Shown piece by piece: positions 7,806 to 49,879 of a stretch of DNA of 64,000 bases. The translations under genes were made by a program, and so were the position numbers. Positions within the stretch are counted from its first letter, which is position 1. Each line of letters starts with the position of its first letter. The notes under the pieces were generated by a model. It worked only from the letters and a program-made list of their open reading frames with translations, did no database searches and was not told the DNA's origin. The stretch is from contig JAAYCA010000060.1 of NCBI GenBank assembly GCA_012744435.1, positions 4,067 through 68,066 of the forward strand. Reading direction: 5' to 3'. Source of the stretch: Bacteroidales bacterium. GTDB lineage: Bacteria; Bacteroidota; Bacteroidia; Bacteroidales; UBA932.

Positions 7806-7844
7806 TCGCGTTCGTGCTGTCCTTCCGCAAAGATACACAAATAA

Positions 7845-27389: not shown

Positions 27390-27393
<4 letters not shown>
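26788..27393 (-). CDS. pnuC: Nicotinamide riboside transporter PnuC
   Basis: 201 aa, about 7 TM segments, with [23 protein letters not shown] and [18 protein letters not shown], which are characteristic PnuC blocks. Its start overlaps the sufB stop (ATGA) and its stop overlaps the sufC start. Confidence 0.85.
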
Positions 27394-28838
<1,445 letters not shown>

Positions 28839-28883
28839 TGAATGGACAAAGATAAGGTTTTTGTTGTATCTTCGCGAATAAAA

Positions 28884-33919: not shown

Positions 33920-36900
33920 CTAGAATTGAATGTTGACACCAACGAGGAAAGAACGTGCGCTGGGATAGTAACCCAGATCGATACCGGACACCCAGTCTTC
34001 GTCGAAGCCATAACCGATCTCAGGATCCATGCCGGAGTACTTGGTGATGGTCAGGAGGTTCTGGGCGGAGACATAGAGGCGGGCCTTGCTGATGAAGCCG
34101 CCGCGCAACAGCCGGCTGAAGTCGTAGCCGAGGGTCACGTTGGAAATCTTGAAAAAGTCGGCGTTCTCGATGTAGATATCGGAGATGTTGGACCAGTTGC
34201 GGTCGGCGCAGGTAGTCCACAGCGGGAGCCGGTTGGACGTGCCGGGACCGCTCCAGCAGTTCAGCAGGTCGCGGGTGTAGCTGTCCGTCGGACGGTCGAA
34301 GAAGGAACGGTAGGACTTGGCGATCTGCTGGCCGAAGTTGCCGTAGCCGGTGATGTTCAGGTCGAAGCCCTTCCAGGCGAACCAGAGATTGAGGCCGGCG
34401 GTGAAGTCCGGATGGGGATCGCCGATCATCGTGCGGTCGTCGTCGGTGATCTGTCCGTCGCCGTTGACGTCCACGAAGATCAGGTCGCCGGGCTTGGCGT
34501 CATCGTATTTGGCCTTGGCGGCGTTGACCTCGGACTCGTTCTGGAAGACGCCGGCGGTCTTGTAGCCGTAGAAGTAGCCGATCGGGTAGCCGACTTGAGC
34601 GCGGTACATCTCGGAAGTACCCTGGCTCAGCACGTCGTCCTTGCCATGGATGATGCCTTCGGAGTTGGCAAGCCGGGTGACCTCGTTCTTGTTGAACGAA
34701 CCGTTCAGGTTGATGCCATAGGTGAACTCGCCCGTGTGCTTGCCGTAGTCGATGGAGAACTCGATACCGGAGTTGCGCACGTCACCGCCGTTTACGTATG
34801 GAGCACTGAAGCCGTACACCGTCGCGATGGGGGCGTCCACCAGCCAGTTCTTGGTGTTCTTGATGTAGGCGTCGACCGTGAGGCCGAGGGCGGAGTTGAA
34901 GAAGCGGGCGTCAAGACCGACGTTGGTCTGCTCGGAGGTCTCCCAGCTCACGTCCGGATTGGCCAGCGTGCCGGGGACGGCGCCGGTGGACATGGATGCC
35001 TTGTTGCCGAAGTAGTAGCCGGCGCTGCTGGACATCTTGATCGTGGACAGGTACTGGAAGTTGGAGATGCTGGCGTTACCGTTCTGGCCCCAGCTGGCGC
35101 GCAGCTTCAGGAAGCTCAGCCAGTCGGAACTGCCCGCCAGGAACGGCTCGTTGGAGAGGGTCCAGCCGGCGGAGACCGACGGGAAGATGCCCCAGCGGTG
35201 ACCGCGGGCGAAGTTGGAGGAACCGTCAGCGCGGACCGTCGCGGAGAACAGGTAGGTGTCCTTGTAGCTGTAGTTGACACGGCCGAAGAAGGAAGCCAGG
35301 GCACCTGCCGTGGACGGGGAGCCGGAAGCGGAGATCTGGCCAAGGATGGCCGGCTTGGTATTGGACAGCCAGGCCCGATCGAAGTCGTTGGGGAAGATGC
35401 TGTTCCACGCACTGGCGGACAGGCTTTCACCCATGCCCCATTTCTCGATGGACTGACCCAGCACGGTGTCGAACACGTGGTCGTTGTTGATGTCGAAATG
35501 GTAGGAAAGCGTATTCTCCCAAGTAATGCGGTGGCCCAGCCTGAGGCTTTGGGAAACCACGTCGTTGTCGTTGTACTGGGAAGTGTTCAGATGATAGATC
35601 ATCTTGTAGCTGCGGTTCGAGCTGCCGGACAGGCGGTAGCCGAACTGGCTCTTGAACCGGAGGTTCTTGATCGGCTGGAGCTCGGCATACACGCTTGCAT
35701 GCAGCGAGTAGAACTTCTCGAGGTTGCGGCCGCGGTTGAAGTAGTCCACGCCGATCGGGTGCTTGGCGTCATTGAAGAAGGTCCAGCCTTCGCGGTCGCG
35801 GACCGCCTCGTCGTAGAAGCCGAGGACGTTGCCCTTGCCGTCCGTCTCGTACACCGGGAGGAGCGGGTTGGCGCCGATCGCATCGTGCAGGGAGCTGTCG
35901 TAGATGTCGCCTTCAGCGATGCCGCTGTTCTGGCCGAAGCTGAAGTTGAGGGTCTCGCCCACCTTGAGGATCTCCAGGTTGTTGCGTTTCATGACCACGT
36001 TGTCCGAGTTCATGCGGAAGGTGTAGCGGCGGTACTTCGCATTCATCGGCTCGATCTTGTTCCAGCCCAGGATACCGTCCTGTCCGGTGTAGGACAGACC
36101 CATCGAGAACTTGTGGTCGGCGGTGCCGCCGGCGACGTTCACGGAATGGTTCTGGGTCATCGCGCCCTTGTTGTACATCTCCTCCACCCAGTTCGTGCCG
36201 TTCCAGGAACCGTTCATGATGGACTGGTACAGGCTGGCGGGAAGTTTGGCGGAGAAGTCGACGGGATCCAGGCCCGAGTTCGTGCGGGCGAGGTTGTACA
36301 TCTGCATGTACTCCTTGGCATTGACCATGTCGGGCATCTTGGCGATGTACTGACCGCCGTAAAAGCCGTCGTAGGAGACGATCACGCGGCCTTCCTTACC
36401 CTGCTTCGTGGTCACGAGCACGACACCGTTCGCGGCACGGGCGCCGTAGATGGCGGCCGAGGCTGCGTCCTTGAGGATATCGACAGACTCGATATCGTTG
36501 GGGTTCAGCGCGTTGATGTCGCCGCCGGCCACGCCGTCGATGACGTACAGCGGCTCAGAATCACCGATGGTGCCGATACCGCGGATGTTCACTTTGTAGC
36601 CGCGGCCCGGCTGGCCGGAATTCTGGGTGATGGACACGCCCGGGCTCTGGCTCTGGAGGGCGCCGAGCGCGGAGGCCGTGTTGAGTTTGGCGAGTTCGTC
36701 GCCTTTCACCTGGATCGTGGATCCGGTGAGGAGTTTCTTCTGTTGGACACCGTAACCGATGACAACCGCCTCGGAAAGCTGGTCCAGATCAGGATACAGG
36801 GTCACGTTGACGGTGCTGCGTCCCTCGACGGCGATCTCCGCCGCGATGTAGCCGAGGCTCTCCACGGAGAGGACTCCGTTCGCGGGAGATTCGACCGAGA

Positions 36901-37081
36901 ACTTGCCGTCGGCGTCGGAGGTCGTCCAGGCGCCAGTACCCTTCACGACAACCGATGCGAAGGGGACAGGGTCCCCGCTGGCACCGTCGGTAATCGTTCC
37001 TTTGACCGTCAGGTTCTGGGCGCTGGCGCTCAACGCGACAAATCCCGACAGCAGGAAAAGGAAAAGTTTGTAGGCTTTCAT
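33920..37081 (-). CDS. SusC/RagA-family TonB-linked outer membrane transporter
   Basis: 1053 aa with a signal peptide, a carboxypeptidase-regulatory-like domain (LTVKGTITDG.SGDPVPFASVVVKGT), a plug (DILKDAASAAIYGARAANGVVLVTTKQG) and a barrel ending ..VGVNIQF. Confidence 0.95.
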   Translation of the reverse strand: MKAYKLFLFLLSGFVALSASAQNLTVKGTITDGASGDPVPFASVVVKGTGAWTTSDADGKFSVESPANGVLSVESLGYIAAEIAVEGRSTVNVTLYPDLDQLSEAVVIGYGVQQKKLLTGSTIQVKGDELAKLNTASALGALQSQSPGVSITQNSGQPGRGYKVNIRGIGTIGDSEPLYVIDGVAGGDINALNPNDIESVDILKDAASAAIYGARAANGVVLVTTKQGKEGRVIVSYDGFYGGQYIAKMPDMVNAKEYMQMYNLARTNSGLDPVDFSAKLPASLYQSIMNGSWNGTNWVEEMYNKGAMTQNHSVNVAGGTADHKFSMGLSYTGQDGILGWNKIEPMNAKYRRYTFRMNSDNVVMKRNNLEILKVGETLNFSFGQNSGIAEGDIYDSSLHDAIGANPLLPVYETDGKGNVLGFYDEAVRDREGWTFFNDAKHPIGVDYFNRGRNLEKFYSLHASVYAELQPIKNLRFKSQFGYRLSGSSNRSYKMIYHLNTSQYNDNDVVSQSLRLGHRITWENTLSYHFDINNDHVFDTVLGQSIEKWGMGESLSASAWNSIFPNDFDRAWLSNTKPAILGQISASGSPSTAGALASFFGRVNYSYKDTYLFSATVRADGSSNFARGHRWGIFPSVSAGWTLSNEPFLAGSSDWLSFLKLRASWGQNGNASISNFQYLSTIKMSSSAGYYFGNKASMSTGAVPGTLANPDVSWETSEQTNVGLDARFFNSALGLTVDAYIKNTKNWLVDAPIATVYGFSAPYVNGGDVRNSGIEFSIDYGKHTGEFTYGINLNGSFNKNEVTRLANSEGIIHGKDDVLSQGTSEMYRAQVGYPIGYFYGYKTAGVFQNESEVNAAKAKYDDAKPGDLIFVDVNGDGQITDDDRTMIGDPHPDFTAGLNLWFAWKGFDLNITGYGNFGQQIAKSYRSFFDRPTDSYTRDLLNCWSGPGTSNRLPLWTTCADRNWSNISDIYIENADFFKISNVTLGYDFSRLLRGGFISKARLYVSAQNLLTITKYSGMDPEIGYGFDEDWVSGIDLGYYPSARSFLVGVNIQF

Positions 37082-37131: not shown

Positions 37132-37196
37132 CAAAAATACCCTGCTTCACCGATTTAATGAAGCCACTTTTGCGTATTTCAATACCCATTTTACGT
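37132..37196 (-). promoter_or_regulatory. Promoter (-7 box TAttTTTG) plus direct-repeat operator, site S1, upstream of susC
   Basis: The + strand has TTTGCGT at 37169-37175 and TTTACGT at 37190-37196 (21-bp spacing), flanking ATTTCAATAC. The -7 box complement caaaaata lies at 37132-37139, 29 nt from the operator. Confidence 0.6.
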
Positions 37197-37203
37197 CCCA
37201 TGA

Positions 37204-38376
37204 TCACTTCATCAGGCGACGGACGATCTGACCGATTTCCTCATTCTCATGCACCCCCGCAAACGCTTCGGCACCAGGGCCGTAGGCATACACGGGGACG
37301 AGGATGCCGTTGTGTCCCTTGGTGGAGAAATGGACCTTGACCGTGCGCTCCTGCAGGCTGCCGTCGAGGAGCGTCAGGCCGCCGGTGGCATGGTCCGCCG
37401 TGACGATGACCAGGGTGTGTCCGTCCTGCTCGGCCCACTTGAGGACCTTGCCGACGGTGCGGTCGAAGTCGAACAGCTCCTCGGCCATGTAGCCGACCTT
37501 CTGGCGATGGCCCCAGTCGTCGATGCTCGAGCCTTCGATCATCAGGAAGAAGCCCTTCTTGTTGTCCAGCAGTTCGATGGCCTTCATAGCGCTGTCTTCG
37601 AGCACGGGGCCGCGGTCCAGCGCGGGATCCATCTCGAGCGGGGCGAAGAGGCCGAGCACGCGGCCTTCCTTCACCCTGTTCAGATCCTCGCGGGTGTCCA
37701 CGAAGGTGTAGCCGCGGTCCACCATCTCCTGCACCAGGTCGCGGCCGTCGTTGCGTCCCTGCCAGAACTGCCGGCCGCCGCCGCAGAGGAAGTCCACCCC
37801 GCTGTCGACGTACTGCGCGGCATTGATCTCCTCCTCGTCGCGGTCCAGGGAGTGTCCCACGAAGTCGAGCGGCGTCGCATCGTTGATGCGGCAGGTCACC
37901 GTCACGCCGGTCTTCATGCCCTTGCGCTGCGCGTCATGCAGCAGGCTGGGGACCGGATTGCCGTCGGGATCCACGCCCATATAATAGTATTTGGTCTTGA
38001 CACCCGTCGCCAGGGCGGAACCGCCAGCGCAGGAATCCGTGATCAGCCGGTCCACGGCATAGGTGCGGGAGAAACCCGTGTAGGGCATCTGCTCCATGTT
38101 GAGGCTGCCGCCGTTGAGCACCCAGCCGCAGCTGACCTGCTCCACGCCCATGCCGTCGCCGATCATGAAGATGACGTTCTTGATCTTCTTGCTTCTGGGC
38201 TGCCGCACGGTCACGGTCTGGTACGGCTCGACGACCGTGTACTGGTCGTCCTCTCGGAAGGAGTCGTTGGCATACTTGGACCGGTTGCGGGAGATGTCCA
38301 GCTCTTCAGCGCTTTGCGCAAAGGCACCTGCGGCGCAGCCCAGGGCCAGGAAAAGGATGAGGGTCGCTCTTCTCAT
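37204..38376 (-). CDS. Alkaline phosphatase (PhoA family), secreted
   Basis: 390 aa with a signal peptide, MIGDGMG, the active-site block DSCAGGSALATG, and IEGSSIDDWGH...TADHATGG. Confidence 0.9.
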   Translation of the reverse strand: MRRATLILFLALGCAAGAFAQSAEELDISRNRSKYANDSFREDDQYTVVEPYQTVTVRQPRSKKIKNVIFMIGDGMGVEQVSCGWVLNGGSLNMEQMPYTGFSRTYAVDRLITDSCAGGSALATGVKTKYYYMGVDPDGNPVPSLLHDAQRKGMKTGVTVTCRINDATPLDFVGHSLDRDEEEINAAQYVDSGVDFLCGGGRQFWQGRNDGRDLVQEMVDRGYTFVDTREDLNRVKEGRVLGLFAPLEMDPALDRGPVLEDSAMKAIELLDNKKGFFLMIEGSSIDDWGHRQKVGYMAEELFDFDRTVGKVLKWAEQDGHTLVIVTADHATGGLTLLDGSLQERTVKVHFSTKGHNGILVPVYAYGPGAEAFAGVHENEEIGQIVRRLMK

Positions 38377-38385
38377 AGGGGATTG

Positions 38386-40872
38386 TCAATCAAGTTTGAA
38401 ATGGATGTCCCGCACGTCCGCGCGGCAGCTGACCGTCTTGGTCTGGCCGGGCAGCAGCGGGAAGAAATTGTCGCTCCAGAAGGCCGGCGCCACGAGCTCG
38501 CCCGCGGCGTCCAGGGCCTGGAGAATGTTCATATAGGCGATGACGGAGGACTTGTTGGTCAAAGTCACGGCCCACTGGCCGTCCCCGCGCTCCTCCACGC
38601 TCATCTGCACGTCCGCCGGCTCCTGACCGAAGGCGAAGCGCAGGTCGGCATAGCGGCTGACCGGGGTGATGTACCAGTTGGTCCGGTCCCATACGTATTC
38701 ATTGTCCTTCGCCGGCAGGCAGTAGAAGTTGTCGGCGACGACGGTGCCGTCGGCGGCCGTCAGCGACAGCGCCACGAAATGCGGACGGCCGTCGAAGCGG
38801 CGCAGGTCGAAAACCGGCAAGCTCGTGCGGTAGCCCAGGCGCACATCCTTGCTGTCCCCGCCCAGCAGGCGGGACTGCTCGTCATACACCAGGTAATTGG
38901 CCTTGAGGGTGACCGGCTCCGGACTTTCGCTGACCGCATAGACCTTGCGGTCGGCGTAGTTGAACATGAGCTGAAGCGGCTCGCAAGCCTTCTTCGTGCC
39001 ATAGTAGCCGGCCGTCGGCACTCCGTACCAGTCGTAGAGCTGCCAGTACAGTGACGGCCAGGCGGAATTCAGCATCCACTGGACGATGCCCGTGCTGCGG
39101 GGCATCCGGACGCGGAACGCCTCGAACATGCCGCGGGTGCCGTCGTAGTCCACGGCGTGGGCCTTGCGGACGAAGTCTTCGAAGCCAATCGCCGCTCCAT
39201 AATGTCCCTCTATCACGGCATTCAGCACCTTCGTCGCATTCATGGCGGAAGTGGATGCAGTACAGTGGTAGTCCCAGGCTTCGGACAGCGGCCAGAGGGC
39301 GTCCTCCGGAATCATCCGGCGCAGGGACCCCGCCTGCGGCAGGTTGGCGCCGATGCCCGTTTCGGTGTTGAATCCGAAAGCACCGCCGGCCTGCGTGTCG
39401 CGGTACCAGTAGTCCGCGCCCACCCACTCGTAGGGGCCTTCCATCTTGGTGCCCGACCAGCCGGTGATGCCGCTCTCCATATTCTTGGCGGAGCAGACGT
39501 ACGGGCGGTATTCCTGGGCATTGTAGATCTCCATATAACGCTGCTCCAGGCCCGGGTTCGGGATGCGGTCGCTGCCGGTCAGCCATCCGATCAGGGAAGC
39601 GTGGTTGTGCAGGCGGACCACCTGGTCGCGGAAATACGCGACCGCAAGGTCCTCCGTCTCCGGAGTGTTGATGCACCCATAGCTGTCGGTCTCCGGGAGA
39701 CCGCAATAATTCTCCCATTCCCACTGGCAGCTCCAGCCCACGAGGGAGAGCACCCCGAGGCGGTCGCACAAGTCATAGACCGTATCGTCCTTGCCCCAGA
39801 TGTTCTCGAAACGGATACAGTTGAGGTTCATGTCCTTGACATATTCCACCTGCCTCCGGAGACTTTCCTGGGTGTCCCGCAGGAAGATGTCGTCGGTCCA
39901 ACCGGCGCCCTTCAGCAGGATGTCGCGGCCGTTAAGTTTGAACTGGCGGTAGTTATCCGCCGTCAGGCTGCTGGTGATCTGGCGGACGCCGAATTCCACC
40001 TCCCTGCGGTCGGAGAGCACACCGGCCACCTCCGCCCGGGCCTCCAGGCTGTACAGCTCCGGGGTGCCAAGGTCGTAGCTCCACCACACACGGGGATCCG
40101 TCAGGTGCAGCAGGGGCAGTTCGGCCGGGGTCAGGCAGAGCGTCTTCGTCTGTCCGGCCTCCAGCGAGAAGGGGACGGCGGCCTGTCCGGCATCCTGCAG
40201 GTCCAGGTGCAGCGTCCCTTCCACGGGACGCGCCTCGTGGTTGCGCAGGGTCACGCGGACTTCGAGGTCCGCCTGGGCGAGCGTCTGCACGTCCAGGTCG
40301 GGGATCACGAACACGTCCTCGATGCTCACGGCGCCGGTCGCATGCAGCGTGACCGGTCGGACGATACCCATACTCTCGTCCAGCGGACGGGGATTCCAGT
40401 CCACGAAACCGATGTTGAGGTCGCCGCTCTGCGCACGGCGCAGGCGGACCTCCAGGGTGTTGCGGCTCCGCAACAGCGGAGCGACTTCATACGCGCGGCG
40501 GCGGAAGACGCCGAAGGTGGTGTCGGACGAGGCAATCTGCGTGCCGTTCAGGAAGATGTCGGCATAGTAGCCGAGGCCGTCGAAACAGAGCTCATAATGC
40601 TGTCCGGGGGCGGCCTTCGCCGAGAAAGCGGTGCGGTAGGTCCAGGTATCGTCGAAAATGGCCTTGTCCGCCGCGGCATAGGCGAGGCCTTCCAGAAGGC
40701 CATCTCCGAAGAAACCGGCATCATACAAAGCGCCGGCCACCGTCGAAGGAACCGTCGCATTCCACTGCTCCGCGCCGCCTGCGCGGGAGAGTTGCCAGCC
40801 CTTGTCCAGGACCAGACTGTCGCCACAGGAGATCGGCGCGGGTCGCGTGCAGGCAAACGCCGCTGCGACCAA
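38386..40872 (-). CDS. Glycoside hydrolase family 2 (beta-mannosidase / exo-beta-glucosaminidase-like); the start region is probably frameshifted in an A7 run
   Basis: 828 aa with GH2 sugar-binding, Ig-like and TIM-barrel regions (NLNCIRFENIWGKDD..., GWSCQWEWE). The track start at 40872 is a TTG and the product has no signal peptide. See the finding for the ATG at 40901. Confidence 0.85.
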   Translation of the reverse strand: MVAAAFACTRPAPISCGDSLVLDKGWQLSRAGGAEQWNATVPSTVAGALYDAGFFGDGLLEGLAYAAADKAIFDDTWTYRTAFSAKAAPGQHYELCFDGLGYYADIFLNGTQIASSDTTFGVFRRRAYEVAPLLRSRNTLEVRLRRAQSGDLNIGFVDWNPRPLDESMGIVRPVTLHATGAVSIEDVFVIPDLDVQTLAQADLEVRVTLRNHEARPVEGTLHLDLQDAGQAAVPFSLEAGQTKTLCLTPAELPLLHLTDPRVWWSYDLGTPELYSLEARAEVAGVLSDRREVEFGVRQITSSLTADNYRQFKLNGRDILLKGAGWTDDIFLRDTQESLRRQVEYVKDMNLNCIRFENIWGKDDTVYDLCDRLGVLSLVGWSCQWEWENYCGLPETDSYGCINTPETEDLAVAYFRDQVVRLHNHASLIGWLTGSDRIPNPGLEQRYMEIYNAQEYRPYVCSAKNMESGITGWSGTKMEGPYEWVGADYWYRDTQAGGAFGFNTETGIGANLPQAGSLRRMIPEDALWPLSEAWDYHCTASTSAMNATKVLNAVIEGHYGAAIGFEDFVRKAHAVDYDGTRGMFEAFRVRMPRSTGIVQWMLNSAWPSLYWQLYDWYGVPTAGYYGTKKACEPLQLMFNYADRKVYAVSESPEPVTLKANYLVYDEQSRLLGGDSKDVRLGYRTSLPVFDLRRFDGRPHFVALSLTAADGTVVADNFYCLPAKDNEYVWDRTNWYITPVSRYADLRFAFGQEPADVQMSVEERGDGQWAVTLTNKSSVIAYMNILQALDAAGELVAPAFWSDNFFPLLPGQTKTVSCRADVRDIHFKLD

Positions 40873-40906: not shown

Positions 40907-41737
40907 TCAAATCAAGGATGCGCCGATGACGGGGATGTCATCGCCGGTACAAACATCGATCTTCAACCGCTCCAGGCTCTTACGATAGGGGAAATCCCGC
41001 TTCAGGCGGGCTTCCATGGACTGCTGGAAAAGCGGATAATTGTAAGCGACTCCGCCACCGAGCGAGATGTGGCTGGGGTCGTAGGCAAACATGACCGTGC
41101 AAAGCAGGTCGCCCAAGCGCTTGCCCAGGTCCGTGAAAAGGGCAAGGGCACGGGGGTCTCCGTCGCGCGCGGCCAGCGAGGCCGACAGGCTGTCCCAGCC
41201 AGTCCCGGCAAAGAACTGCTTGCTACAATAGCTCTCGAGTGTCGTACCGCGATACGGGAGACTCCCGAGTTCCCCCGCTCCGCAATTTGCCCCCATGAAG
41301 AGCCGTCCCCGGTCAACGATGCCCATGCCCACCCCGGTGCCCAAGGTGATGACGACAAGCACTTCAGGCTTCGCGTCGTCCGGGTATCCATGGTACACCC
41401 CCATGGCATAGCAGTTCGCATCGTTGTTGACGGCGACAGGCAGGTGGAAACGTTCCTCCAGATATTCCTTGAGCGGCACCTCCGTCCAGGAAGGGATATT
41501 GACGGTATCATAGACAATCCCACGCTTAACATCGACGACAGACGGCACTCCGATACCAATCTTTTCCGTATCCGGGGTCAGCATGGATGAAATCTGATCC
41601 GACAAGGCGTCCAGGGTCTGTTGCAGATTTGCTTCATAAGGGAACCACGGTGTGCTGACACGCCGCACAAGTTGTCCGTCCCGGACCTGACCGAGGGCCA
41701 GATTGGTCCCGCCGACATCGATTCCTAGTGTCACCAT
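40907..41737 (-). CDS. ROK-family sugar kinase (glucokinase / N-acetylglucosamine kinase-like)
   Basis: Starts MVTLGIDVGGTNLALG. It has NDANCYAMG and GTGVGMGIV blocks. The start is placed at the internal Met of the track ORF. Confidence 0.85.
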   Translation of the reverse strand: MVTLGIDVGGTNLALGQVRDGQLVRRVSTPWFPYEANLQQTLDALSDQISSMLTPDTEKIGIGVPSVVDVKRGIVYDTVNIPSWTEVPLKEYLEERFHLPVAVNNDANCYAMGVYHGYPDDAKPEVLVVITLGTGVGMGIVDRGRLFMGANCGAGELGSLPYRGTTLESYCSKQFFAGTGWDSLSASLAARDGDPRALALFTDLGKRLGDLLCTVMFAYDPSHISLGGGVAYNYPLFQQSMEARLKRDFPYRKSLERLKIDVCTGDDIPVIGASLI

Positions 41738-41753: not shown

Positions 41754-41817
41754 CAAAAGTATGGATAAGATTGATACTGTAAATACAAATTTGCGTATTT
41801 CAATACACAATTTGCGT
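41754..41817 (-). promoter_or_regulatory. Promoter (-7 box TActTTTG) plus direct-repeat operator, site S2, in the ROK/GH20 divergent region
   Basis: TTTGCGT occurs at 41790-41796 and 41811-41817 (21-bp spacing), flanking ATTTCAATAC. The -7 complement caaaagta lies at 41754-41761, 28 nt from the operator. Confidence 0.6.
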
Positions 41818-41832
41818 CATTATATTTCGGGG

Positions 41833-43953
41833 ATGCGGTTTTTTTTACATCTTTGCGTCAGGAGACAAAAACCACTGATTGTGAACACGAAACGTTATTT
41901 GACCTTTTTCATCGCGTGCGCGTTTTGCACTGCATGCACCCAACCTTGCGTCATCAACTGGACCGAGGGGGAAACGGATCCCGGGAGCGGACGCGCCATC
42001 CACACCCTGACCATCGAGAACCCGCCCGCCGGTACGGACTGGACCATCTGGTTCAGCCAGTTCCGCACCCCGGTTACCATGGCGCCGGACGCCCCCGGCT
42101 CCATCGACCACATCAGTGGCACGCTCTACCGCGTGGTGCCCGGCAGGCACAGGGGCAAGACCATGACGTTGCGCTATGAGGCACGGCCCCTTGTGAACCA
42201 GTGCCGCGCCCCGGAAGGCTTCCACCTCCAGTGCCGGGGCAGCGAACCTGTGGCCGTGGAGGCCACATACAACTTCCTTCCCGCCACGAACGTCCACAGC
42301 TTCGATTACCAGCCTGTACAGACCAATCCCTACGATATGATTCCGCGCCTGAAACGGGTCCAGCCCCGTCGGGGCGAGACCGACCCTTCCGAAGAACCGA
42401 CGGTGCGGTTCGTCAAAGGACAGGCCCCGGGCTGGTATCGCCTCACCCTGGACGGCAGCCTTCACATCGAGGCGGCCGACGAAGACGGCGCCTATTATGC
42501 CAGCGTCACCCTGGACAACATCCGGCGCAGCGCCAAGGGTGCCCCGGTGGGAAACGCCACCGTAACGGACTGGCCGGACCTGCCTTATCGCGGACTGATG
42601 CTTGACGTGAGCCGTAATTTCACGAAGAAGGACGACCTCCTCCGCCTGCTGGACATTGCCGCGCATTACAAAGTGAATTTCCTGCACCTGCACTTCGGAG
42701 ATGACGAAGGCTGGCGCATTCAGATCGACGCTTTGCCGGAGCTGACCGAATATGGTGCCTACCGCTGCCTTCCCGAGCTGCAGACGGACGGCACTATCCT
42801 GGAGCCCAACGGCCTGCAGCCCACCTACTGCATCGCCTCTAACCGCGACTCGGAATCCCCGGGCAGCGGATACTATACCCACGAAGATTTCGTAGAAATC
42901 CTGCGTTATGCCTGGGTACGCCACATCCGAATTGTACCAGAGTTCGACACCCCCGGCCATGCCCGGGCGGAAGTCAAGTCCATGGAAGTCCGGGCAGCGC
43001 GCACCGGCGACATCAACTGCCTGCTCTCCGAACCGGAGGACACGTCAGAATACGAGTCCGTGCAGGACTACACCGACAACGTGATCAACGTAGCGCTGCC
43101 GTCCACTTACACCTTCTTCGAGACGGTCTTCGACGCGCTCATCGCGATGTACAGGGAAGCAGGCGTGCCGCTGGAAGCCATCCATGTCGGCGGCGACGAA
43201 GTGCCGGAAGGTGCCTGGACTGGCTCCCCGGCCTGCCGCGCGCTCATGGAGGCCCATGGCAAGACCGACATCGGCTGGCTCAAGGACTACTTCACCAACC
43301 GCTTGCTGGACATCGCGGAGGCGCGCGGAATCAAACTCGCCGGCTGGCAGGACGTCGCCCAGGAGCTCGAGCCCGCCACGCTGGAGCGCCTCAAGCGCAA
43401 CCTCGCCTTCACCAACCTCTGGACCGTCTCCGATGGACGAGATGTGCTTCCCTACCAATTCGCCAACGACGGCATCCCCGTCATCATCTCCAGCGCCCCC
43501 AACTGCTACATGGACTTCGCCTACAATTCCGGCAAGCTCGAGCGCGGACACTCCTGGGGCGGCTTCGTGGACGAACGCCGCAGTTTCAGCCTGCAACCCT
43601 ACGACATGTATCGCTCCGTCCGCTGGGACGACGACGGGAAGATCGTCGACCTGAGCCGTTCCGGCGAAGGGAAACCCGTTCTCAAGCCCGCCGCCCGCCG
43701 GCTCATCCTCGGCGTCGAAGGACACCTCTGGGCGGAGACCCTGCGCTGCTTCGATCACGTAACCTACTACCTTTTCCCGAAGGCGCTGGGGCTCTTCGAG
43801 CGTGGCTGGAACGCCACACCGGTCTGGGCGGGCACCACCGCTGCGGACGATCCGGCCTTTACGGCCGATTTTGACCGCTTCTTCAGCATCATCGTCGATC
43901 ACGAATATCCCTACTACGAGTCCCAGGGCATTTCTTACCACCGCCACCAGTAA
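41833..43953 (+). CDS. Beta-N-acetylhexosaminidase, GH20
   Basis: Has GH20 catalytic blocks (PYRGLMLDVSRNF, NFLHLHFGDDEGWRIQI, PEFDTPGHA, IHVGGDEV). The start is uncertain: ATG at 41833, or GTG at 41881 giving the lipoprotein-like peptide (M)NTKRYLTFFIACAFCTAC. Confidence 0.85.
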   Translation: MRFFLHLCVRRQKPLIVNTKRYLTFFIACAFCTACTQPCVINWTEGETDPGSGRAIHTLTIENPPAGTDWTIWFSQFRTPVTMAPDAPGSIDHISGTLYRVVPGRHRGKTMTLRYEARPLVNQCRAPEGFHLQCRGSEPVAVEATYNFLPATNVHSFDYQPVQTNPYDMIPRLKRVQPRRGETDPSEEPTVRFVKGQAPGWYRLTLDGSLHIEAADEDGAYYASVTLDNIRRSAKGAPVGNATVTDWPDLPYRGLMLDVSRNFTKKDDLLRLLDIAAHYKVNFLHLHFGDDEGWRIQIDALPELTEYGAYRCLPELQTDGTILEPNGLQPTYCIASNRDSESPGSGYYTHEDFVEILRYAWVRHIRIVPEFDTPGHARAEVKSMEVRAARTGDINCLLSEPEDTSEYESVQDYTDNVINVALPSTYTFFETVFDALIAMYREAGVPLEAIHVGGDEVPEGAWTGSPACRALMEAHGKTDIGWLKDYFTNRLLDIAEARGIKLAGWQDVAQELEPATLERLKRNLAFTNLWTVSDGRDVLPYQFANDGIPVIISSAPNCYMDFAYNSGKLERGHSWGGFVDERRSFSLQPYDMYRSVRWDDDGKIVDLSRSGEGKPVLKPAARRLILGVEGHLWAETLRCFDHVTYYLFPKALGLFERGWNATPVWAGTTAADDPAFTADFDRFFSIIVDHEYPYYESQGISYHRHQ

Positions 43954-43963
43954 CGACCTGCTT

Positions 43964-45130
43964 ATGCTCAGATTGCTGTTTATCTCCGACTTCACCGAGT
44001 CCTATCCCAGTAAGCTGCTCAAAGGGATCGTACACTACTCCCGACAAAAGGAACAATGGGCCGTGTGCCGCATGCCTCCAGCTTACAAACAGCGCATCGG
44101 CATCCCCGGTGTGGTCCGGTGGGCGAAAGACTGGGGCGCGGACGCCGTCATCGGACAGTTCGAGGAGACGGACGACGTGCGCCTCTTCGAAAAGAACGGC
44201 ATCGTCGTCGTGGCCCAGGACTTCAAGAAGCGATTCACCACCATCCCCAACATCACCGCCGACTACATCGGCACGGGCCGGATGGCCGCCCGCTTTTTCA
44301 TCGATCACGGCTTCCGAAACTACGGTTTTTTCGGTTTCAACAACGTCTGCTGGTCCGACGAGCGCTGCGAGGGTTTCCGCCGCGAGGTAGAAGCCGCCGG
44401 CTTCGGCGATTCCTTCTACGCCTACAACCTCCAGGACATCGACCATTTGTGGTACTACGAGCGCGACCGCATGCGAAAATGGCTCTATTCTCTCCCCAAA
44501 CCCATTGCCATCATGGCCTGCGATGACAACCAAGGCAACAACTTGATCGAAGCGTGCCACACCATGGGGATCAAGATTCCCGCGGAAATCTCCGTCATGG
44601 GCGTGGACAACGACGAGTTGCTGTGCACCCTGGGAAGCACCACCCTGTCCAGCATCTTCGTCGATATTGAAGAAGGCGGCTGGAAGACAGCGGAGCTGAT
44701 CGAGCGGCGCATCGACAACCCGCACGCCCCGCTCGAAGATGTCGTCCTGCGGCCGGTCAAGATCGTGAACCGCATCTCCACGGCCGCCTTCGCCACCACC
44801 GATGTCCAGATCCAGAAAGCGGTGCAGTTCATCCACCAGAATTACCAGAAGAAAATCTCCGTCAAGGACGTCATGAGGGAAGTGGCCCTGTCCCGCCGTC
44901 TGCTCGAGCGGCGATTCAAGACCGTGACCGGGCAGACCCTCTACCAATACATCGCCGACCTGAAGATCAAACGATTCGCGGAATTGCTCCTCGACACGGA
45001 CGAGCAGGTGGTGGGTATCGCCCTGTCGCTGGGCGAGAACGACACCAAGAGCATCTCCCGCCGTTTCAAGCAAATCTATGGCTACTCGCCCAACGAATGG
45101 CGGGCGAAACAACACAATAAGCAATCATGA
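43964..45130 (+). CDS. XylR-like regulator: periplasmic-binding-protein-type sugar-binding domain + AraC-family HTH
   Basis: 388 aa from MLRLLFISDF. It has a LacI/PBP1-like core (AIMACDDNQGNNLIEAC...ISVMGVDNDEL) and a C-terminal AraC double HTH (IHQNY.KKISVKDVMREVALSRRLLERRFK...GYSPNEWR). Confidence 0.85.
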   Translation: MLRLLFISDFTESYPSKLLKGIVHYSRQKEQWAVCRMPPAYKQRIGIPGVVRWAKDWGADAVIGQFEETDDVRLFEKNGIVVVAQDFKKRFTTIPNITADYIGTGRMAARFFIDHGFRNYGFFGFNNVCWSDERCEGFRREVEAAGFGDSFYAYNLQDIDHLWYYERDRMRKWLYSLPKPIAIMACDDNQGNNLIEACHTMGIKIPAEISVMGVDNDELLCTLGSTTLSSIFVDIEEGGWKTAELIERRIDNPHAPLEDVVLRPVKIVNRISTAAFATTDVQIQKAVQFIHQNYQKKISVKDVMREVALSRRLLERRFKTVTGQTLYQYIADLKIKRFAELLLDTDEQVVGIALSLGENDTKSISRRFKQIYGYSPNEWRAKQHNKQS

Positions 45131-47058
45131 CACGACACCTCTTCATCCTGCCGGCCCTCGCCATCCTCTTCGCCACCTGCCTGAACGCCGGCGCACAGCA
45201 GTACGACATCCTTCAGCAACTAAAGGAGCACCCTGAATACCTCGACGGCACGGACCACCTCTGCCCAACCGGTCCCATCGCCCAGACACGCGCTCCGCGC
45301 GGCTACAAGCCCTTCTACATCAGCCACTACGGACGGCACGGCGCCCGCTATGCCTGGCAGAGCGACATGTACGAACGGCTGAACGACGTCTTCTCTGCGG
45401 CCGCACAGCAGGGCAACCTCACCGCTCTGGGTGCTTCTTTCAAGGAACGTTTCGACGGGCTGTATCCGTCGGTCCGCTACCGCGTGGGCGATCTCTCGCA
45501 CAAAGGCTGGCAACAACAGCAGGAGCTCGCCTCCCGGATGTACGATACATTTCCGAAGGTTTTTCGGAAGGGTGCGAAGGTCCGTTCCTGGACCTCGACC
45601 TCCACGCGCTGCATCATGACGATGTCCGCCTTCTGCCTCGGGCTGAAGGCGAAAGATCCGAAACTGGACATTTTCGAGAACTTCGGCGTCAGTTTCCTGC
45701 CGGCCATCCTACCGCTCGACAGCAAGAATCCCTTCCGGGAAGAGTCCTTCCAGACCACGCCATTGCGCTTCAGTGAGACCTGGGAGCAGTATATCGAGCG
45801 CACGGTGGACTACCGCGCCATCCTGTCGCGGCTCTTCAAGGACCGGGACAAGGCCCTTCCGGCTGCGGAACAGTGGGATTTCGTTTCCTACCTGTACTTC
45901 TTTGCAGCGGGCATGCGCAGCCTGGACACGGATCTCGTCTTCACAGACATCTTTACCCCGGAAGAGCGCATCGCCCTCTGGAAGATCGACGATTTCCAGT
46001 TCTATGCCCAAGCCTGGCCCACGCACCTGGGTTACCGGCCCATCGTCAAGGATTTCATCGCAAAGGCCGACGAGCGCATCGCCACGGGCGAGAAGGGCGC
46101 CGACCTGCGTTTCGGCCACGACTACACCTTCCTGCCGCTGCTGATGACCCTCGGCGTGAATGGTTTCGACCGCGACATCACCGACCCCGACGAGATTCCG
46201 GTCTGGTGCCAGTTGCACGAGGTGCCGATGGGTGCCAACCTCCACTTCGTCTTCTATCGCCGCCCGCGCAGCTCCAGAATCCTTTTCAAAGTCCTCCTCA
46301 ACGGCAAGGAAGCCCGGCTCCCGCTCAAGACGGACATCTGGCCCTACTATGACTGGGATGCATTCAAGCAACAGGCAAGTCTCCCGGAAATGGGAGAGTA
46401 CACCACTGTCCGGACAGCCGTTCCGGAGGTCTCCGGCCTGTGCCTGAATCCGGGCGGGGATGGCCTTCTGGCCACCTCGGACGAGAAAGGCGTGTACCAT
46501 GTCAGCTGGACCGGCGAGACGGGCGAATTCTACACCGAAGAAAGCATGGACTGCGAAGGCGTCACCATCGATCCCGCCACGGGAGACGTCTATTATGTCG
46601 TCGAGGGCAAACAGGAACTCCGCCGGCTGCGCGCCCCGGAATACAACGAGCCGGAACTCCTGACGGTGATCTCAGAAGCGGGCTTTGGCACCAACAGCGG
46701 CCTTGAGGCCGTCACCTGGTTGGGCGACGGCACCCTGCTGATCGGCAACCAGGCAGACCCGACCCTGCTGATCCGCTATTCCCTCACCGAAGGCATCCTC
46801 GCCCGTACGGAAATCACGGAAGGCATCAAGGACATCTCCGACCTGTGCTACGACCCGGTACGAAATGCGCTCTGGATTGCCGACAGCGAGCAGCGGACCT
46901 TCCATCTCTGCACCTTGAAAGGCAGGGTGCTGGCCACATATCCGGTGCCGTTCATCGACAACGGGGAAGGCCTGTACGTGGATCGCGACCACCAGTGCAT
47001 CTGGATAGGAGACGACACCACGTCCATGCTCTACAAGTTTTCTTTCAAGAACCTATAG
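45127..47058 (+). CDS. Secreted fusion: histidine (acid) phosphatase branch-2 domain + SdiA-regulated/phytase-like beta-propeller domain
   Basis: 643 aa with a signal peptide and an RHG motif (ISHYGRHGARY) plus a downstream HD (RFGHDYT). The C-terminal part, about 220 aa, has repeated blades (EVSGLCLNP.., CEGVTIDPATGDVYYV, GLEAVTWLGDGTLLI, ISDLCYDPVRNALWIAD, GEGLYVD..IWIGDD). Confidence 0.75.
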   Translation: MTRHLFILPALAILFATCLNAGAQQYDILQQLKEHPEYLDGTDHLCPTGPIAQTRAPRGYKPFYISHYGRHGARYAWQSDMYERLNDVFSAAAQQGNLTALGASFKERFDGLYPSVRYRVGDLSHKGWQQQQELASRMYDTFPKVFRKGAKVRSWTSTSTRCIMTMSAFCLGLKAKDPKLDIFENFGVSFLPAILPLDSKNPFREESFQTTPLRFSETWEQYIERTVDYRAILSRLFKDRDKALPAAEQWDFVSYLYFFAAGMRSLDTDLVFTDIFTPEERIALWKIDDFQFYAQAWPTHLGYRPIVKDFIAKADERIATGEKGADLRFGHDYTFLPLLMTLGVNGFDRDITDPDEIPVWCQLHEVPMGANLHFVFYRRPRSSRILFKVLLNGKEARLPLKTDIWPYYDWDAFKQQASLPEMGEYTTVRTAVPEVSGLCLNPGGDGLLATSDEKGVYHVSWTGETGEFYTEESMDCEGVTIDPATGDVYYVVEGKQELRRLRAPEYNEPELLTVISEAGFGTNSGLEAVTWLGDGTLLIGNQADPTLLIRYSLTEGILARTEITEGIKDISDLCYDPVRNALWIADSEQRTFHLCTLKGRVLATYPVPFIDNGEGLYVDRDHQCIWIGDDTTSMLYKFSFKNL

Positions 47059-47850
47059 CCCACTTTCCGCGGCCTCGACGGCCTTGAAATAGCGGTAGCT
47101 GCTCACCTTCACCTCTCCGATGGCGGCTTCGTCGCAGACGATGATGCCATCGGGGTGGTTCTGCAAGGCGCTCACGGTGTTGTAGTGGGACATCGGTCCT
47201 TCGATGGCGCCGGCCAGGGCACGGGCCTTCTTCGACCCGAAGGCGAGGATCATCACCTCGCGCGAATCCATCACCGTGGCCACGCCCACGGACATCGCAC
47301 GGGCAGGCACGGCAGCCGGATCTCCTCCGAAGAAACGGGAATTGACCTCGCGGGTGTCCTGCGTAAGTGTCACCACGCGGGTACGGGACGAAAGCGGGGA
47401 GAATGGTTCGTTGAAGGCAATGTGGCCATCCTCGCCGATCCCGCCCATGAACAGGTCGATCCCGCCGGCCTTTTCAATAGCCCGCTCATATTCGGCACAT
47501 TCAGCCTCGGGATCGGCAGCGTTGCCGTCCAGGATATGGATATGATCCTCAGGGATATCAATGTGGTCGAAAAAGTTCCTGTGCATGAAGGCGTGATAGC
47601 TTTCGGGATGCTCCTCGGGCAGGCCAACGTACTCGTCCATGTTGAATGTAATCACATTTTTGAAGGACAATCCGCCCGACTTGACCATGCGGACGAGCTC
47701 GGCGTACGTGGCAAGCGGGGTGGAGCCGGTAGGCAGGCCCAGCACGAAGGGCTTGCGCGTCTGCGCGGCTTTCTCCCGAATCCGGGCGGCGATGTGACGG
47801 GCCGCCCACAGACCGCCTTCCGCGGCATTTTCGCGAATGATGACTTTCAT
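47053..47850 (-). CDS. nagB: Glucosamine-6-phosphate deaminase
   Basis: 265 aa with GLPTGSTP, FNMDEYVGL and GIGEDGHIAFNEP. Confidence 0.95.
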   Translation of the reverse strand: MKVIIRENAAEGGLWAARHIAARIREKAAQTRKPFVLGLPTGSTPLATYAELVRMVKSGGLSFKNVITFNMDEYVGLPEEHPESYHAFMHRNFFDHIDIPEDHIHILDGNAADPEAECAEYERAIEKAGGIDLFMGGIGEDGHIAFNEPFSPLSSRTRVVTLTQDTREVNSRFFGGDPAAVPARAMSVGVATVMDSREVMILAFGSKKARALAGAIEGPMSHYNTVSALQNHPDGIIVCDEAAIGEVKVSSYRYFKAVEAAESGL

Positions 47851-47854
47851 GGTA

Positions 47855-49780
47855 TCAGCATAGTTTTAAAAAGACTTCAATGGCCTGGTATTCCGCCATG
47901 CCGAGCTGGTCGTAGAGGCGGGCGGTGTTCTGCGTACGCTCCTCCGCCCGCTGCCAGAACTCGCGGGAATCCTCTCCCGGGAAGGGAACGATGTCTTTCT
48001 GCGAGAGGTGGCGGAAGATGGCGTGGCGCTTTTTGATGACCTCCTCCGGACTCAGCGGGACGGCCATGTCCACACGGCCCAGCTCCCACTCCATCCAGGC
48101 GCCGCGATAAAGCCAGATGTGGGTCTGCGCCAGCCAGTCCCGGCCTTCGGCGCGCAGCTGCTCCACCGCCTCCAGGGCGGCTTCCGTGCACACGCGGTGC
48201 GTACCGTGCGGATCCGCCAGATCGCCCGCCATGAAGATCATATGTGGCTTAAGCCGGCAAACCAGCTCCTTGATGATGTCCACGTCTGCCTGCGTCCGCG
48301 GCATCTTCTTGATGCCCCCGGATTCATAGAAAGGGAGATTGAGGAAATGGACGTTGGTGCTGTCGTTCAGCCCGAAGGAGCGGACGGCAGCACGGGCTTC
48401 GCTGCGGCGGATGGCTGCCTTGAGGGAAAGCATCTTACGCGGCTCGGGCTCGCCCGGCACCTTGGCATCCACCAGCGCCTTGACTTCGGCGTAGCGATCG
48501 TCCATCCCCAACTGGGCGGCGGCGTCCATGTGCTGAAGCACCACGTCATCATGGACGGCCACGTCGCCAGAGGTCTGGTAGGCCACATGTACATCATGGC
48601 CTTGAGAGACCAGACGGATGAATGTACCGCCCATCGAGATCACGTCGTCGTCGGGATGCGGGGAGAAGATCAGCACTGTCTTCGGGAACGGGCTGGCCGG
48701 GACCGGCCGGGTGCTGTCATCCGCGTTCGGCTTGCCGCCAGGCCATCCGGTAATGGTGTGCTGGAGGTCGTTGAACACGTCGATATTGACCTTGTCAAAG
48801 GGGCCGTAGGACTCCAGCAGTTCGCCGAGGTTATTCTCCAGATAATCCTGCTCTCTGAGTTTGAGGATCGGCTTGCCGACGGTCTGGCAAAGCCACACCA
48901 CGGCCTTGCGGACGAGTTTCGGCTTCCAGTCGCAAGGGCCGACGAGCCAGGGCGCCACCACGCGGGTGAGCAGACTCCCTGCCGTCGCATCCACAAAGAA
49001 GTGGATGTGGTCGTGACGCTGCAGGAGCGACGCCGGACAGGCCGTCGTCATCTCGCCCTCGGCGATGGCTTTCACCGCCTGCGCCTTGTCCTCGCCCCAG
49101 GCCATCAGCACGATGCGGCCGGCAGTGAGCATCGTTCCGATACCCATTGTGATGGCCGTCTGAGGCGTGACGGCGATATCATTGCCGAAATGGCGCGCCT
49201 GGCGCTTGCGCGAGCCGTACGACAGGCGCACGGTGCGGGTACGTGTCTTTTCATTGCTGCCGGCTTCGTTGAAGCCCACCTGCCCCTCTTCGCCGATGCC
49301 GATCACCAGAAGATCCAGGCCACGGGCGATTTTGTCGAAAGCCGCACAATAGGCGGAGACCTCCGCCTGCGGTACGGTCCCGTCAGGGATGTGGATGTTC
49401 TCCTTCAAGATATCAACCTTGTCCAGCAGCGCCTCATGAAGGCGGTGATTGCGGCTTTGCAACTCATCGGACGATGACGGATAGTATTCATCGATGGAGA
49501 CGATCTCCACGCCACGGAAAGAGACCTCCCCTGTCTCGTAGCGGTGCGCCAGTTCGGCATAGAGCGACACCGGCGTGGTGCCGGTCGTAAGTCCCAGGCG
49601 GAACAGCCGTCCCTTGCAAGCCTTGATGGACGCGACGATGAGATCGGCCACGGCACAAGAAGCCGGGACGGATTCCGGATAGATCTCCGTCCATATTTTC
49701 TCGTAATTATGAAGAATGCCTCCCGGAATATTCTCTTCGATCAGTCCCCCTTCGCAGGGTAAAGTAAAGTGCTTGTCCAT
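47855..49780 (-). CDS. NagB-like sugar-phosphate isomerase/deaminase domain fused to an LmbE/PIG-L de-N-acetylase domain
   Basis: About 641 aa from MDKHFTLP. The N-terminal half has GLTTGTTP, SIDEYY and GIGEEGQVGFNE. The C-terminal half has VLIFSPHPDDDVISMGG...HDVHVAYQTSG, typical of LmbE. Confidence 0.8.
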   Translation of the reverse strand: MDKHFTLPCEGGLIEENIPGGILHNYEKIWTEIYPESVPASCAVADLIVASIKACKGRLFRLGLTTGTTPVSLYAELAHRYETGEVSFRGVEIVSIDEYYPSSSDELQSRNHRLHEALLDKVDILKENIHIPDGTVPQAEVSAYCAAFDKIARGLDLLVIGIGEEGQVGFNEAGSNEKTRTRTVRLSYGSRKRQARHFGNDIAVTPQTAITMGIGTMLTAGRIVLMAWGEDKAQAVKAIAEGEMTTACPASLLQRHDHIHFFVDATAGSLLTRVVAPWLVGPCDWKPKLVRKAVVWLCQTVGKPILKLREQDYLENNLGELLESYGPFDKVNIDVFNDLQHTITGWPGGKPNADDSTRPVPASPFPKTVLIFSPHPDDDVISMGGTFIRLVSQGHDVHVAYQTSGDVAVHDDVVLQHMDAAAQLGMDDRYAEVKALVDAKVPGEPEPRKMLSLKAAIRRSEARAAVRSFGLNDSTNVHFLNLPFYESGGIKKMPRTQADVDIIKELVCRLKPHMIFMAGDLADPHGTHRVCTEAALEAVEQLRAEGRDWLAQTHIWLYRGAWMEWELGRVDMAVPLSPEEVIKKRHAIFRHLSQKDIVPFPGEDSREFWQRAEERTQNTARLYDQLGMAEYQAIEVFLKLC

Positions 49781-49808: not shown

Positions 49809-49872
49809 CAAAAATAGCTTATTCCAGGGACTCCTCTAACGGAAAATGCGTATTTCGATACGCTGTTTGCGT
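49809..49872 (-). promoter_or_regulatory. Promoter (-7 box TAttTTTG) plus direct-repeat operator, site S3, upstream of the nagB-LmbE/nagB pair
   Basis: AATGCGT at 49845-49851 and TTTGCGT at 49866-49872 (21-bp spacing) flank ATTTCGATAC. The -7 complement caaaaata lies at 49809-49816, 28 nt from the operator. Confidence 0.6.
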
Positions 49873-49879
49873 ATTCCGC

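Follow-up and report, generated by a model that had tools for sequence, protein, structure and literature searches.

What reads the three copies of a direct-repeat motif that stand ahead of glucosamine genes in one 64,000-nt stretch of Bacteroidales DNA (contig JAAYCA010000060.1; the window, below), and what would it do there? We consider it likely that the three sites, S1 to S3, are operators of an activator of the XylR family that is encoded in the same locus, at 43964-45130. A preliminary description of the window had quoted the sites together with a TAnnTTTG-type -7 box for each, and its coordinates and sequences were exact; the 28 to 29 nt that it gave from site to box, counted end to start, are the same distances as the gaps of 28 nt (S1), 27 nt (S2) and 27 nt (S3) used here. 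The elements on which the argument turns are as follows.

37168..37199, plus strand: S1 in its 32-nt motif frame (37168-37196 as quoted earlier), box A TTTTGCGTATTT, box B CATTTTACG
41789..41820, plus strand: S2, the best copy, in its 32-nt frame (41789-41817 as quoted earlier), ATTTGCGTATTT-CAATACA-CAATTTGCGTCAT
49844..49875, plus strand: S3 in its 32-nt frame (49844-49872 as quoted earlier), AAATGCGTATTT-CGATACG-CTGTTTGCGTATT
37132..37139, minus strand: -7 box of the susC promoter, TATTTTTG (plus-strand complement CAAAAATA)
41754..41761, minus strand: -7 box of the ROK-GH2-alkaline phosphatase promoter, TACTTTTG (plus-strand complement CAAAAGTA)
49809..49816, minus strand: -7 box of the nagB-II promoter, TATTTTTG (plus-strand complement CAAAAATA)
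43964..45130, plus strand: XylR-like regulator of 388 aa, whose LacI/GalR-type sugar-binding domain (Peripla_BP_3) precedes an AraC-type double helix-turn-helix (HTH) DNA-binding domain

S1 lies upstream of the minus-strand genes susC-susD and S3 upstream of the minus-strand genes nagB-II/LmbE and nagB; S2 stands between the ROK operon (minus strand), whose ATG (41737) is 16 nt downstream of the -7 box TACTTTTG, and the divergent GH20-regulator-phosphatase operon (plus strand). An exact 15-mer, TGCGTATTTCRATAC, occurs in three copies in the window, and with up to 3 mismatches it has eight matches against 1.17 expected, a number that none of 100 shuffles reached. Two of the extra matches, at 37174 and 41795, are S1 and S2 read on the opposite strand; those at 8902 and 56691 fall inside long open reading frame (ORF) sequence, another lies at 53490, and these three all score low with the full matrix. 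We also built a leave-window-out weight matrix of 32 nt, trained solely on sites from other genomes, which recovered exactly three window sites (S2, 51.8 bits; S1, 33.7 bits; S3, 32.1 bits). The next-best window match scored 9.1 bits, and the best score in any of 200 Markov-1 random windows was 16.9 bits. Of this organism's own genome, the scan took in the 64-kb window.

The 15-mer is identical in all three sites, including a centre that is not conserved in other species, as it might be if a promoter cassette had recently been duplicated within the locus and no factor recognised the copies. We give this explanation almost no credence, as the three promoter regions are unrelated in sequence beyond the two boxes and the -7 box, and as about 75 species preserve the two boxes at the same spacing and at the same distance from the -7 box, with diverged sequence in between.

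The wider comparison started from the regulator protein, which we searched for in one genome per species. A relative was encoded in 118 of 155 candidate stretches, and the best 80 were kept (L001 to L080), with regulator identities from 90% down to 44%. The nearest relatives are rumen metagenome-assembled genomes (MAGs) labelled Candidatus Cryptobacteroides or Bacteroidales, and the range of the cluster reaches Bacteroides, Dysgonomonas, Parabacteroides and Tannerellaceae. The regulator-ROK-GH2-alkaline phosphatase cluster survives several rearrangements, often in the company of GH20, histidine phosphatase, susCD and nagB genes, and the ROK kinase gene neighbours the regulator or a site in most loci. 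Using an iterated 32-nt matrix and a site cut-off of at least 20 bits, we found 99 sites in the window and in 66 of the 80 ortholog-carrying loci. The regulator gene adjoins a site or sits within a few kilobases of one in 66 of the 80 species, also where gene order has changed, and the sites track the cluster through its rearrangements down to a regulator identity of about 45%.

The targets across species are the ROK operon, susC, nagB-II, the alkaline phosphatase and GH20. S2 has counterparts at the same location in more than 25 species, S1 at susC promoters (L002, L004, L005, L006, L012 and others) and S3 at nagB-II promoters (L002-L006, L008, L011, L012). The preliminary description had proposed one site for each of three transcription units under common control; each unit does have its site, and the comparative evidence argues for the regulatory link.

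Two observations concern how the sites vary. At the nagB-II promoter of the closest relative, whose regulator is 90% identical (L001, 15345-15397, minus strand), three tandem boxes at 21-bp intervals form two overlapping sites, where the window has two boxes. The most distant loci, with regulator identities of 47 to 52%, carry a weaker site at the expected position:

L067, 1576, and L065, 6348, and L071, 5206: weaker sites in Tannerellaceae and Parabacteroides
L056, 11177: weaker site in an unclassified Bacteroidales MAG

In L065 and L067 the cores read ACG (TTTTACGTA...ATACGTAAA) instead of GCG, which may mean that operator and regulator have drifted together.

The conserved motif is a direct repeat, ATTTGCGTATTT-N5-C-N-CAATTTGCG, whose cores are 21 bp apart. 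In the 99-site logo, information is high at positions 1-12, (A/T)TTTGCGTATTT, and at positions 20-31, CAATTTGCG(T/C)AA, with ATTTGCG at positions 1-7 repeated at 22-28; position 18 is also a conserved C, and positions 13-17 and 19 hold at most about 0.4 bit. The two boxes can thus be written (A/T)TTTGCGTATTT and CnCAATTTGCG(T/C)AA, in direct orientation. A spacing histogram made without any matrix, over 1.49 Mb of related loci, gave the same picture: 71 TTGCG pairs on the same strand were 21 bp apart, and most other spacings had fewer than ten. Smaller same-strand excesses were seen at 15 bp (22 pairs), which may come from conserved coding sequence common to orthologous loci, and at 36 bp (11 pairs). 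The direct repeat with half sites 21 bp apart, as first described, is therefore borne out, and two direct half-sites on one helical face with a period of about 21 bp are what AraC/XylS operators show. The ATTTCRATAC that was said to be conserved between the half sites holds in the window lineage and its close relatives; across the family, the centre keeps only C18 and C20.

The same data bear on a quite different reading, in which the sites would be palindromic operators (GCGTAT-N4-ATACGC or TTGCGTATTT/AAATACGCAA) of a dimeric amino-sugar repressor of the NagC/ROK, GntR or LacI type, blocking transcription until an amino sugar is present. S3 does hold a perfect GCGTAT-TTCG-ATACGC inverted repeat, near-perfect in S1 and S2, some orthologous sites (for example in L008, L038 and L041) hold a 20-bp palindrome, and the first target gene encodes a ROK protein. 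Over the 99 sites, however, the central positions 13-17 and 19 carry the little information stated above, and inverted TTGCG..CGCAA pairs at 15 bp number 17 against the 71 direct pairs. We take the GCGTAT-N4-ATACGC repeat to be incidental, as its centre is not conserved outside close relatives and direct pairs outnumber inverted ones. The sites also lie upstream of the core promoter and not over the -7 box or the transcription start, where a conserved inverted repeat would mark a palindromic repressor operator. The ROK protein itself was ruled out as the regulator (276 aa, kinase only, no HTH or other DNA-binding domain), and no GntR, LacI or HTH-ROK gene is present among the ORFs examined around the locus (27390-56270). 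A palindromic repressor is, on these grounds, very unlikely.

The direct repeat is also coupled rigidly to the promoter. At all 99 sites the motif is oriented away from the target gene. Between the edge of box A and the TAnnTTTG box there are 27 nt at 70 of these sites, 28 nt at another 18 and 26 nt at a single one. The distance of 27 or 28 nt at 88 of 99 sites upholds the fixed spacing first noted in the window and puts the sites, in constant position and orientation, immediately upstream of the core promoter, as is usual for AraC/XylS operators. All three window promoters have the box, as do 91 of the 99 sites overall, and the 27 bases between site and box are not conserved in sequence. The Bacteroidota consensus pairs a -7 element, TAnnTTTG, with a TTTG at -33 (PMC7366714). 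In the 99-site logo the -33 TTTG, expected 19 to 21 nt upstream of the -7 box, is absent: frame positions -7 to -2 hold at most about 0.3 bit and show no CAAA complement. The missing element fits an activator-dependent promoter. If the -7 box is taken as -12 to -5, the site spans about -40 to -71 and abuts the usual place of the -33 TTTG; the -40 to -71 region is the one that AraC-family activators typically occupy.

The candidate for such an activator is the locus regulator. On its 442-aa ORF, Pfam places Peripla_BP_3 at residues 164-327 and HTH_18/HTH_AraC at residues 344-435, and the protein matches E. coli XylR (PDB 4FE4) over residues 9-381 (E 2.8e-37, 131.7 bits, 373 aligned residues), as an end-to-end homolog. 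It has the XylR-type architecture in one polypeptide, with an N-terminal periplasmic-binding-protein-like fold and a C-terminal double HTH. Inspection of the N-terminus by eye made no signal peptide or membrane segment evident, so the protein is probably cytoplasmic. None of the 80 loci has xylose genes in the cluster; the conserved partners are the ROK kinase, a CsxA-like GH2 exo-beta-glucosaminidase, phosphatases, GH20 and nagB. Because these partners are glucosamine-pathway genes, the protein is best regarded as a member of the XylR family by homology and not as a functional XylR, with a gene context that indicates glucosamine. The name XylR-like, as first applied, thus suits the architecture of the protein and not a role in xylose use.

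As a control that does not depend on the regulator, we searched a metagenome collection for the exact motif TTTGCGTATTT-N7-CAATTTGCG. This retrieved 69 contigs, and 59 of them fall in the same gene cluster (regulator, ROK, GH2, alkaline phosphatase, GH20, susCD) with an identical -7 box offset. In one other contig (L103) the promoter spacing is right and the target lies past the contig end. In three more (L092, L106, L114), which are GC-rich, have a Planctomycetes-Verrucomicrobia-Chlamydiae (PVC)-like background and no Bacteroidota -7 box, the motif stands about 120 to 150 bp from the 3' end of a XylR-like gene whose product is 32% identical to the window regulator:

L106, 8427-8453: motif identical to TTTGCGTATTT-N7-CAATTTGCG (regulator gene at 7003-8310)
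L114, 3843-3869: identical motif
L092, 129-155: identical motif

Further copies on GC-rich contigs stand ahead of other kinds of genes:

L115, 1644-1670, and L121, 13130-13156, and L123, 327-353: motif ahead of LamG/PEP-CTERM and arabinofuranosidase-like genes

Given this distribution, the motif is not a common sequence, and it leads back to the same protein family outside the phylum. The copies ahead of other kinds of genes also suggest that PVC-type bacteria employ the recognition sequence in several regulons. In L106 and L114 the gene downstream of the motif has a prepilin-type N-terminal methylation motif, and in L106 a sigma-70-like TTGACG...TAATAT promoter follows the site at a similar distance.

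Within the 59 cluster contigs, five (L100, L116, L118, L124, L128) have an extra motif copy just downstream of the susD ortholog, which is 84 to 87% identical in L116, L118, L124 and L128 and 55% identical in L100. In L118 the site (7341-7367) lies ahead of a GH18 gene (6091-7275, minus strand), followed by a second susC/susD pair; in L100 and L116 a second susC-like gene comes after the extra copy. Such a GH18/second susCD member of the regulon is absent from the window. First proposed as a local one, the regulon extends in some relatives to a site ahead of GH18 and a second susCD.

These counts also weigh on the possibility that a different AraC-type protein from elsewhere in the genome, a hybrid two-component system or a paralog, binds the motif while the locus regulator has another role. 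Hybrid two-component regulators of Bacteroides are predicted to use direct repeats about 21 bp apart (PMC3878776), one MAG holds two paralogs of the regulator (L025, L042), and the PVC-like contigs show the same motif ahead of unrelated targets. We nevertheless find this unlikely. The regulator gene is near a site in those 66 species and in most motif-first matches, despite changed gene order; no hybrid two-component gene occurs among the ORFs examined around the window locus; and the presence of the same motif beside the 32%-identical XylR-like gene, in a different phylum-level background, ties the motif to the protein family. The preliminary description had named the locus-encoded protein as the likely binder, and the strong sites in 66 of 80 clusters, the 59 of 69 motif-first contigs and the full-length XylR homology point the same way.

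S2 has promoter boxes 27 nt off both of its edges. The second of these would belong to the operon that contains the regulator:

41848..41855, plus strand: -7-like box (CAnnTTTG) CATCTTTG for the GH20-regulator-phosphatase operon, 27 nt from the box-B edge of S2

This CATCTTTG is 25 nt ahead of the GTG start of GH20. We searched the box-B side of 28 S2-type divergent regions for (C/T)AnnTTTG and found it at 27 nt in 24 and at 26 to 28 nt in 27. In five species the divergent neighbour is the regulator itself (L015, L016, L018, L020, L022), and CAnnTTTG is then 26 nt from the box-B edge. Because the length of this gap has been kept while its sequence diverged, S2 would appear to serve the regulator operon too; it probably drives both the ROK operon and the GH20-regulator-phosphatase operon, with positive autoregulation as the result. 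The autoregulation via S2 that had been raised as a possibility gains support from this fixed-distance box. A third TTTGCGT (41851-41857), 40 nt downstream of S2 box B, overlaps CATCTTTG (then CGT); it is taken to be the promoter box and not a third half-site, as it is out of phase with the 21-bp period. MarA, SoxS and Rob sites work in one orientation or the other according to how far they lie from the promoter, and so offer a precedent, relevant to S2, for an asymmetric AraC-family site that acts both ways. Those proteins are monomers on a single 20-bp box, whereas here there are two boxes with near-equal spacing on both sides.

Taken jointly, the S2 geometry and the PVC-like contigs allow a bolder and more tentative proposal, to which we give somewhat less than even chances. 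A single asymmetric operator would activate two divergent Bacteroidota promoters from near mirror-image distances of 26 to 28 nt (with the CAnnTTTG variant on the box-B side), and the TTTGCG-N15-TTTGCG code would have been retained with PVC XylR-like proteins of 30 to 32% identity, as an ancient, portable pairing of regulator and operator. If true, this is a geometry of bidirectional activation that has not been described for dimeric AraC-family regulators, and the PVC-type motif copies front unrelated glycan genes.

The mechanism that we propose for the locus is the following. The regulator would bind the two boxes through two DNA-binding domains on one face of the helix, given that the cores are 21 bp, or two helical turns, apart. 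Loaded with its sugar, it would recruit or stabilise RNA polymerase holoenzyme that carries the primary sigma factor of Bacteroidota, at promoters that lack a -33 element and would be weak unaided. It would thereby switch on susC-susD from S1, the ROK kinase, GH2 exo-beta-glucosaminidase and alkaline phosphatase from S2, and nagB-II-nagB from S3; the complex bound at S2 would probably also drive the divergent GH20-regulator-histidine phosphatase operon and so provide positive autoregulation. The likely inducer is a compound that the pathway produces inside the cell, for example glucosamine, glucosamine-6-phosphate or a short glucosamine oligomer. That the locus protein is the ligand-responsive, activating binder we infer from its co-occurrence with the sites and from family precedent, and we read it as an activator because of the position and orientation data together with that precedent; binding, activation as opposed to repression, bidirectional action and the inducer all have this standing.

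Several points count against this interpretation. The sites are known from sequence alone, in uncultured organisms, and the case for activation comes solely from their position and from the missing -33 element. Box B is a near-palindrome (TTGCGCAA), which makes the binding geometry uncertain, and dimeric AraC-family activators do not usually work on two divergent promoters from one asymmetric direct repeat. The 80 loci were picked via the regulator gene, so that the co-occurrence is partly by design and the metagenome scan alone is independent. In that scan, six motif-bearing contigs have no regulator gene in their available DNA; these lack the cluster genes and are either short or GC-rich and PVC-like, with LamG, PEP-CTERM or arabinofuranosidase-like targets. 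As several PVC-like targets carry the same motif, it may be shared by paralogous regulators, and further sites or a second related regulator are possible outside the 64-kb window.

Among the closest characterised systems is E. coli XylR, a xylose-dependent activator that needs xylose to bind, with operators of about 37 bp that comprise two direct repeats next to the -35 element, and that activates divergent operons via two separate sites (PMC3561964). The locus regulator has the same architecture and end-to-end homology (PDB 4FE4/4FE7; IA/IF operators of Ni et al. 2013), and its operator likewise consists of two direct repeats next to the upstream element of the promoter; XylR is a sugar-dependent activator of divergent catabolic and transport operons, as the locus regulator would be of its own targets. 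The two differ in that identity is low (the 131.7 bits given above), the cores are TTTGCG instead of the A-rich gaAa-a-a-AAT consensus, the context is glucosamine/hexosamine instead of xylose, and the promoters follow the Bacteroidota pattern, in which a -7 box occurs and a -35 does not. In addition, one site seems to be enough here for both divergent promoters, where E. coli relies on two sites and a DNA loop. AraC at araBAD I1-I2, RhaS/RhaR and MelR also activate in a ligand-dependent manner from direct-repeat half-sites with a 21-bp period that reach the -35 region, and the sites described here share that arrangement. The sensor has a LacI/GalR-type fold here and a cupin fold there, the sigma factor and promoter grammar differ, and, in contrast to AraC, nothing here points to a distant O2-type looping site.

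Within the phylum, the AraC-type hybrid two-component regulators of Bacteroides have predicted motifs made of direct repeats with a distance of about 21 bp (Ravcheev et al. 2013, PMC3878776). These share with our sites the class of DNA-binding domain, the repeat and a setting in susC/susD-containing loci; they are fusions with a membrane sensor kinase, whereas the locus regulator is a soluble one-component protein with presumed intracellular sugar sensing. The 31 regulons of that study include neither the locus regulator nor its motif (PMC3878776). The Boba-seq paper reported ROK and hexokinase glucosamine kinases without a regulator for them, and our literature search found no paper describing the locus regulator, its motif or its regulon. 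The operator grammar is standard for the AraC family, and the regulon is well supported and of an ordinary kind. What is less ordinary is a single site at matching distances between divergent promoters, the distal CAnnTTTG variant, and a recognition sequence that another phylum has kept with protein identity down to about 30%.

The analysis provides a testable regulon for rumen Bacteroidales that have not been cultured (Candidatus Cryptobacteroides and relatives), with one regulator and a motif, four transcription units, and the class to which the inducer probably belongs. It links a widespread, uncharacterised cluster (exo-beta-glucosaminidase, kinase, two phosphatases, GH20, nagB and susCD) to one soluble sugar sensor. 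The rigid spacing from operator to -7 box in about 75 species informs how activators work at Bacteroidota promoters, where knowledge is scant, and the regulator and operator could become an inducible expression module for Bacteroidales. AraC/XylR logic is extended to a new sugar and a new phylum; nothing is overturned.

The genes that flank the sites complete the description of the locus; GC content is about 61%.

32117..33913, minus strand: susD-family lipoprotein (Pfam), co-transcribed with susC
33920..37081, minus strand: SusC-type TonB-dependent transporter, the S1 target
37204..38376, minus strand: alkaline phosphatase, final gene of the ROK operon, with synteny kept in relatives
38386..40872, minus strand: CsxA-like GH2 exo-beta-D-glucosaminidase with a Pfam Ig_GlcNase domain
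40907..41737, minus strand: ROK-family sugar kinase of 276 aa, without HTH, leading the S2 target operon
41881..43953, plus strand: GH20 beta-hexosaminidase with a GTG start, opening the divergent operon that includes the regulator
45127..47058, plus strand: histidine phosphatase (branch 2) with a phytase-like C-terminal part, its start overlapping the regulator stop codon, with synteny kept
47053..47850, minus strand: NagB, glucosamine-6-phosphate deaminase (TIGR00502, 368 bits), beginning 4 nt past the end of nagB-II
47855..49780, minus strand: NagB-II, with glucosamine-6-phosphate deaminase-like and PIG-L/LmbE domains, the S3 target

The GH2 enzyme matched CsxA (PDB 2VZS) with E 3.6e-113 and beta-mannosidases with 1e-28; a beta-mannosidase, and with it an N-glycan locus, was ruled out because the CsxA match is far stronger. 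The GH20 start codon position is kept in orthologs, and the N-terminus is hydrophobic, contains a cysteine and is lipoprotein-like in appearance. For nagB-II the true start is the ATG at 49780, with an N-terminus, MDKHFTLP, common to orthologs. Dozens of species have kept the alkaline phosphatase and the branch-2 histidine phosphatase together with the exo-beta-glucosaminidase, the ROK kinase and the regulator; with two phosphatases conserved together, the natural substrate may be a phosphorylated glycan containing glucosamine, and not plain chitosan. The C-terminal part of the histidine phosphatase (45127-47058) is either phytase-like or a beta-propeller.

Beyond these genes, the window has a C69 peptidase gene after susD. 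Farther along, the longest ORF over a SufB/SufD-type gene (27390-30032, minus strand) is 880 aa long and has SufBD domains only in residues 542-850; probably either the true start of this gene is internal or a separate gene has been fused to it in the ORF listing.

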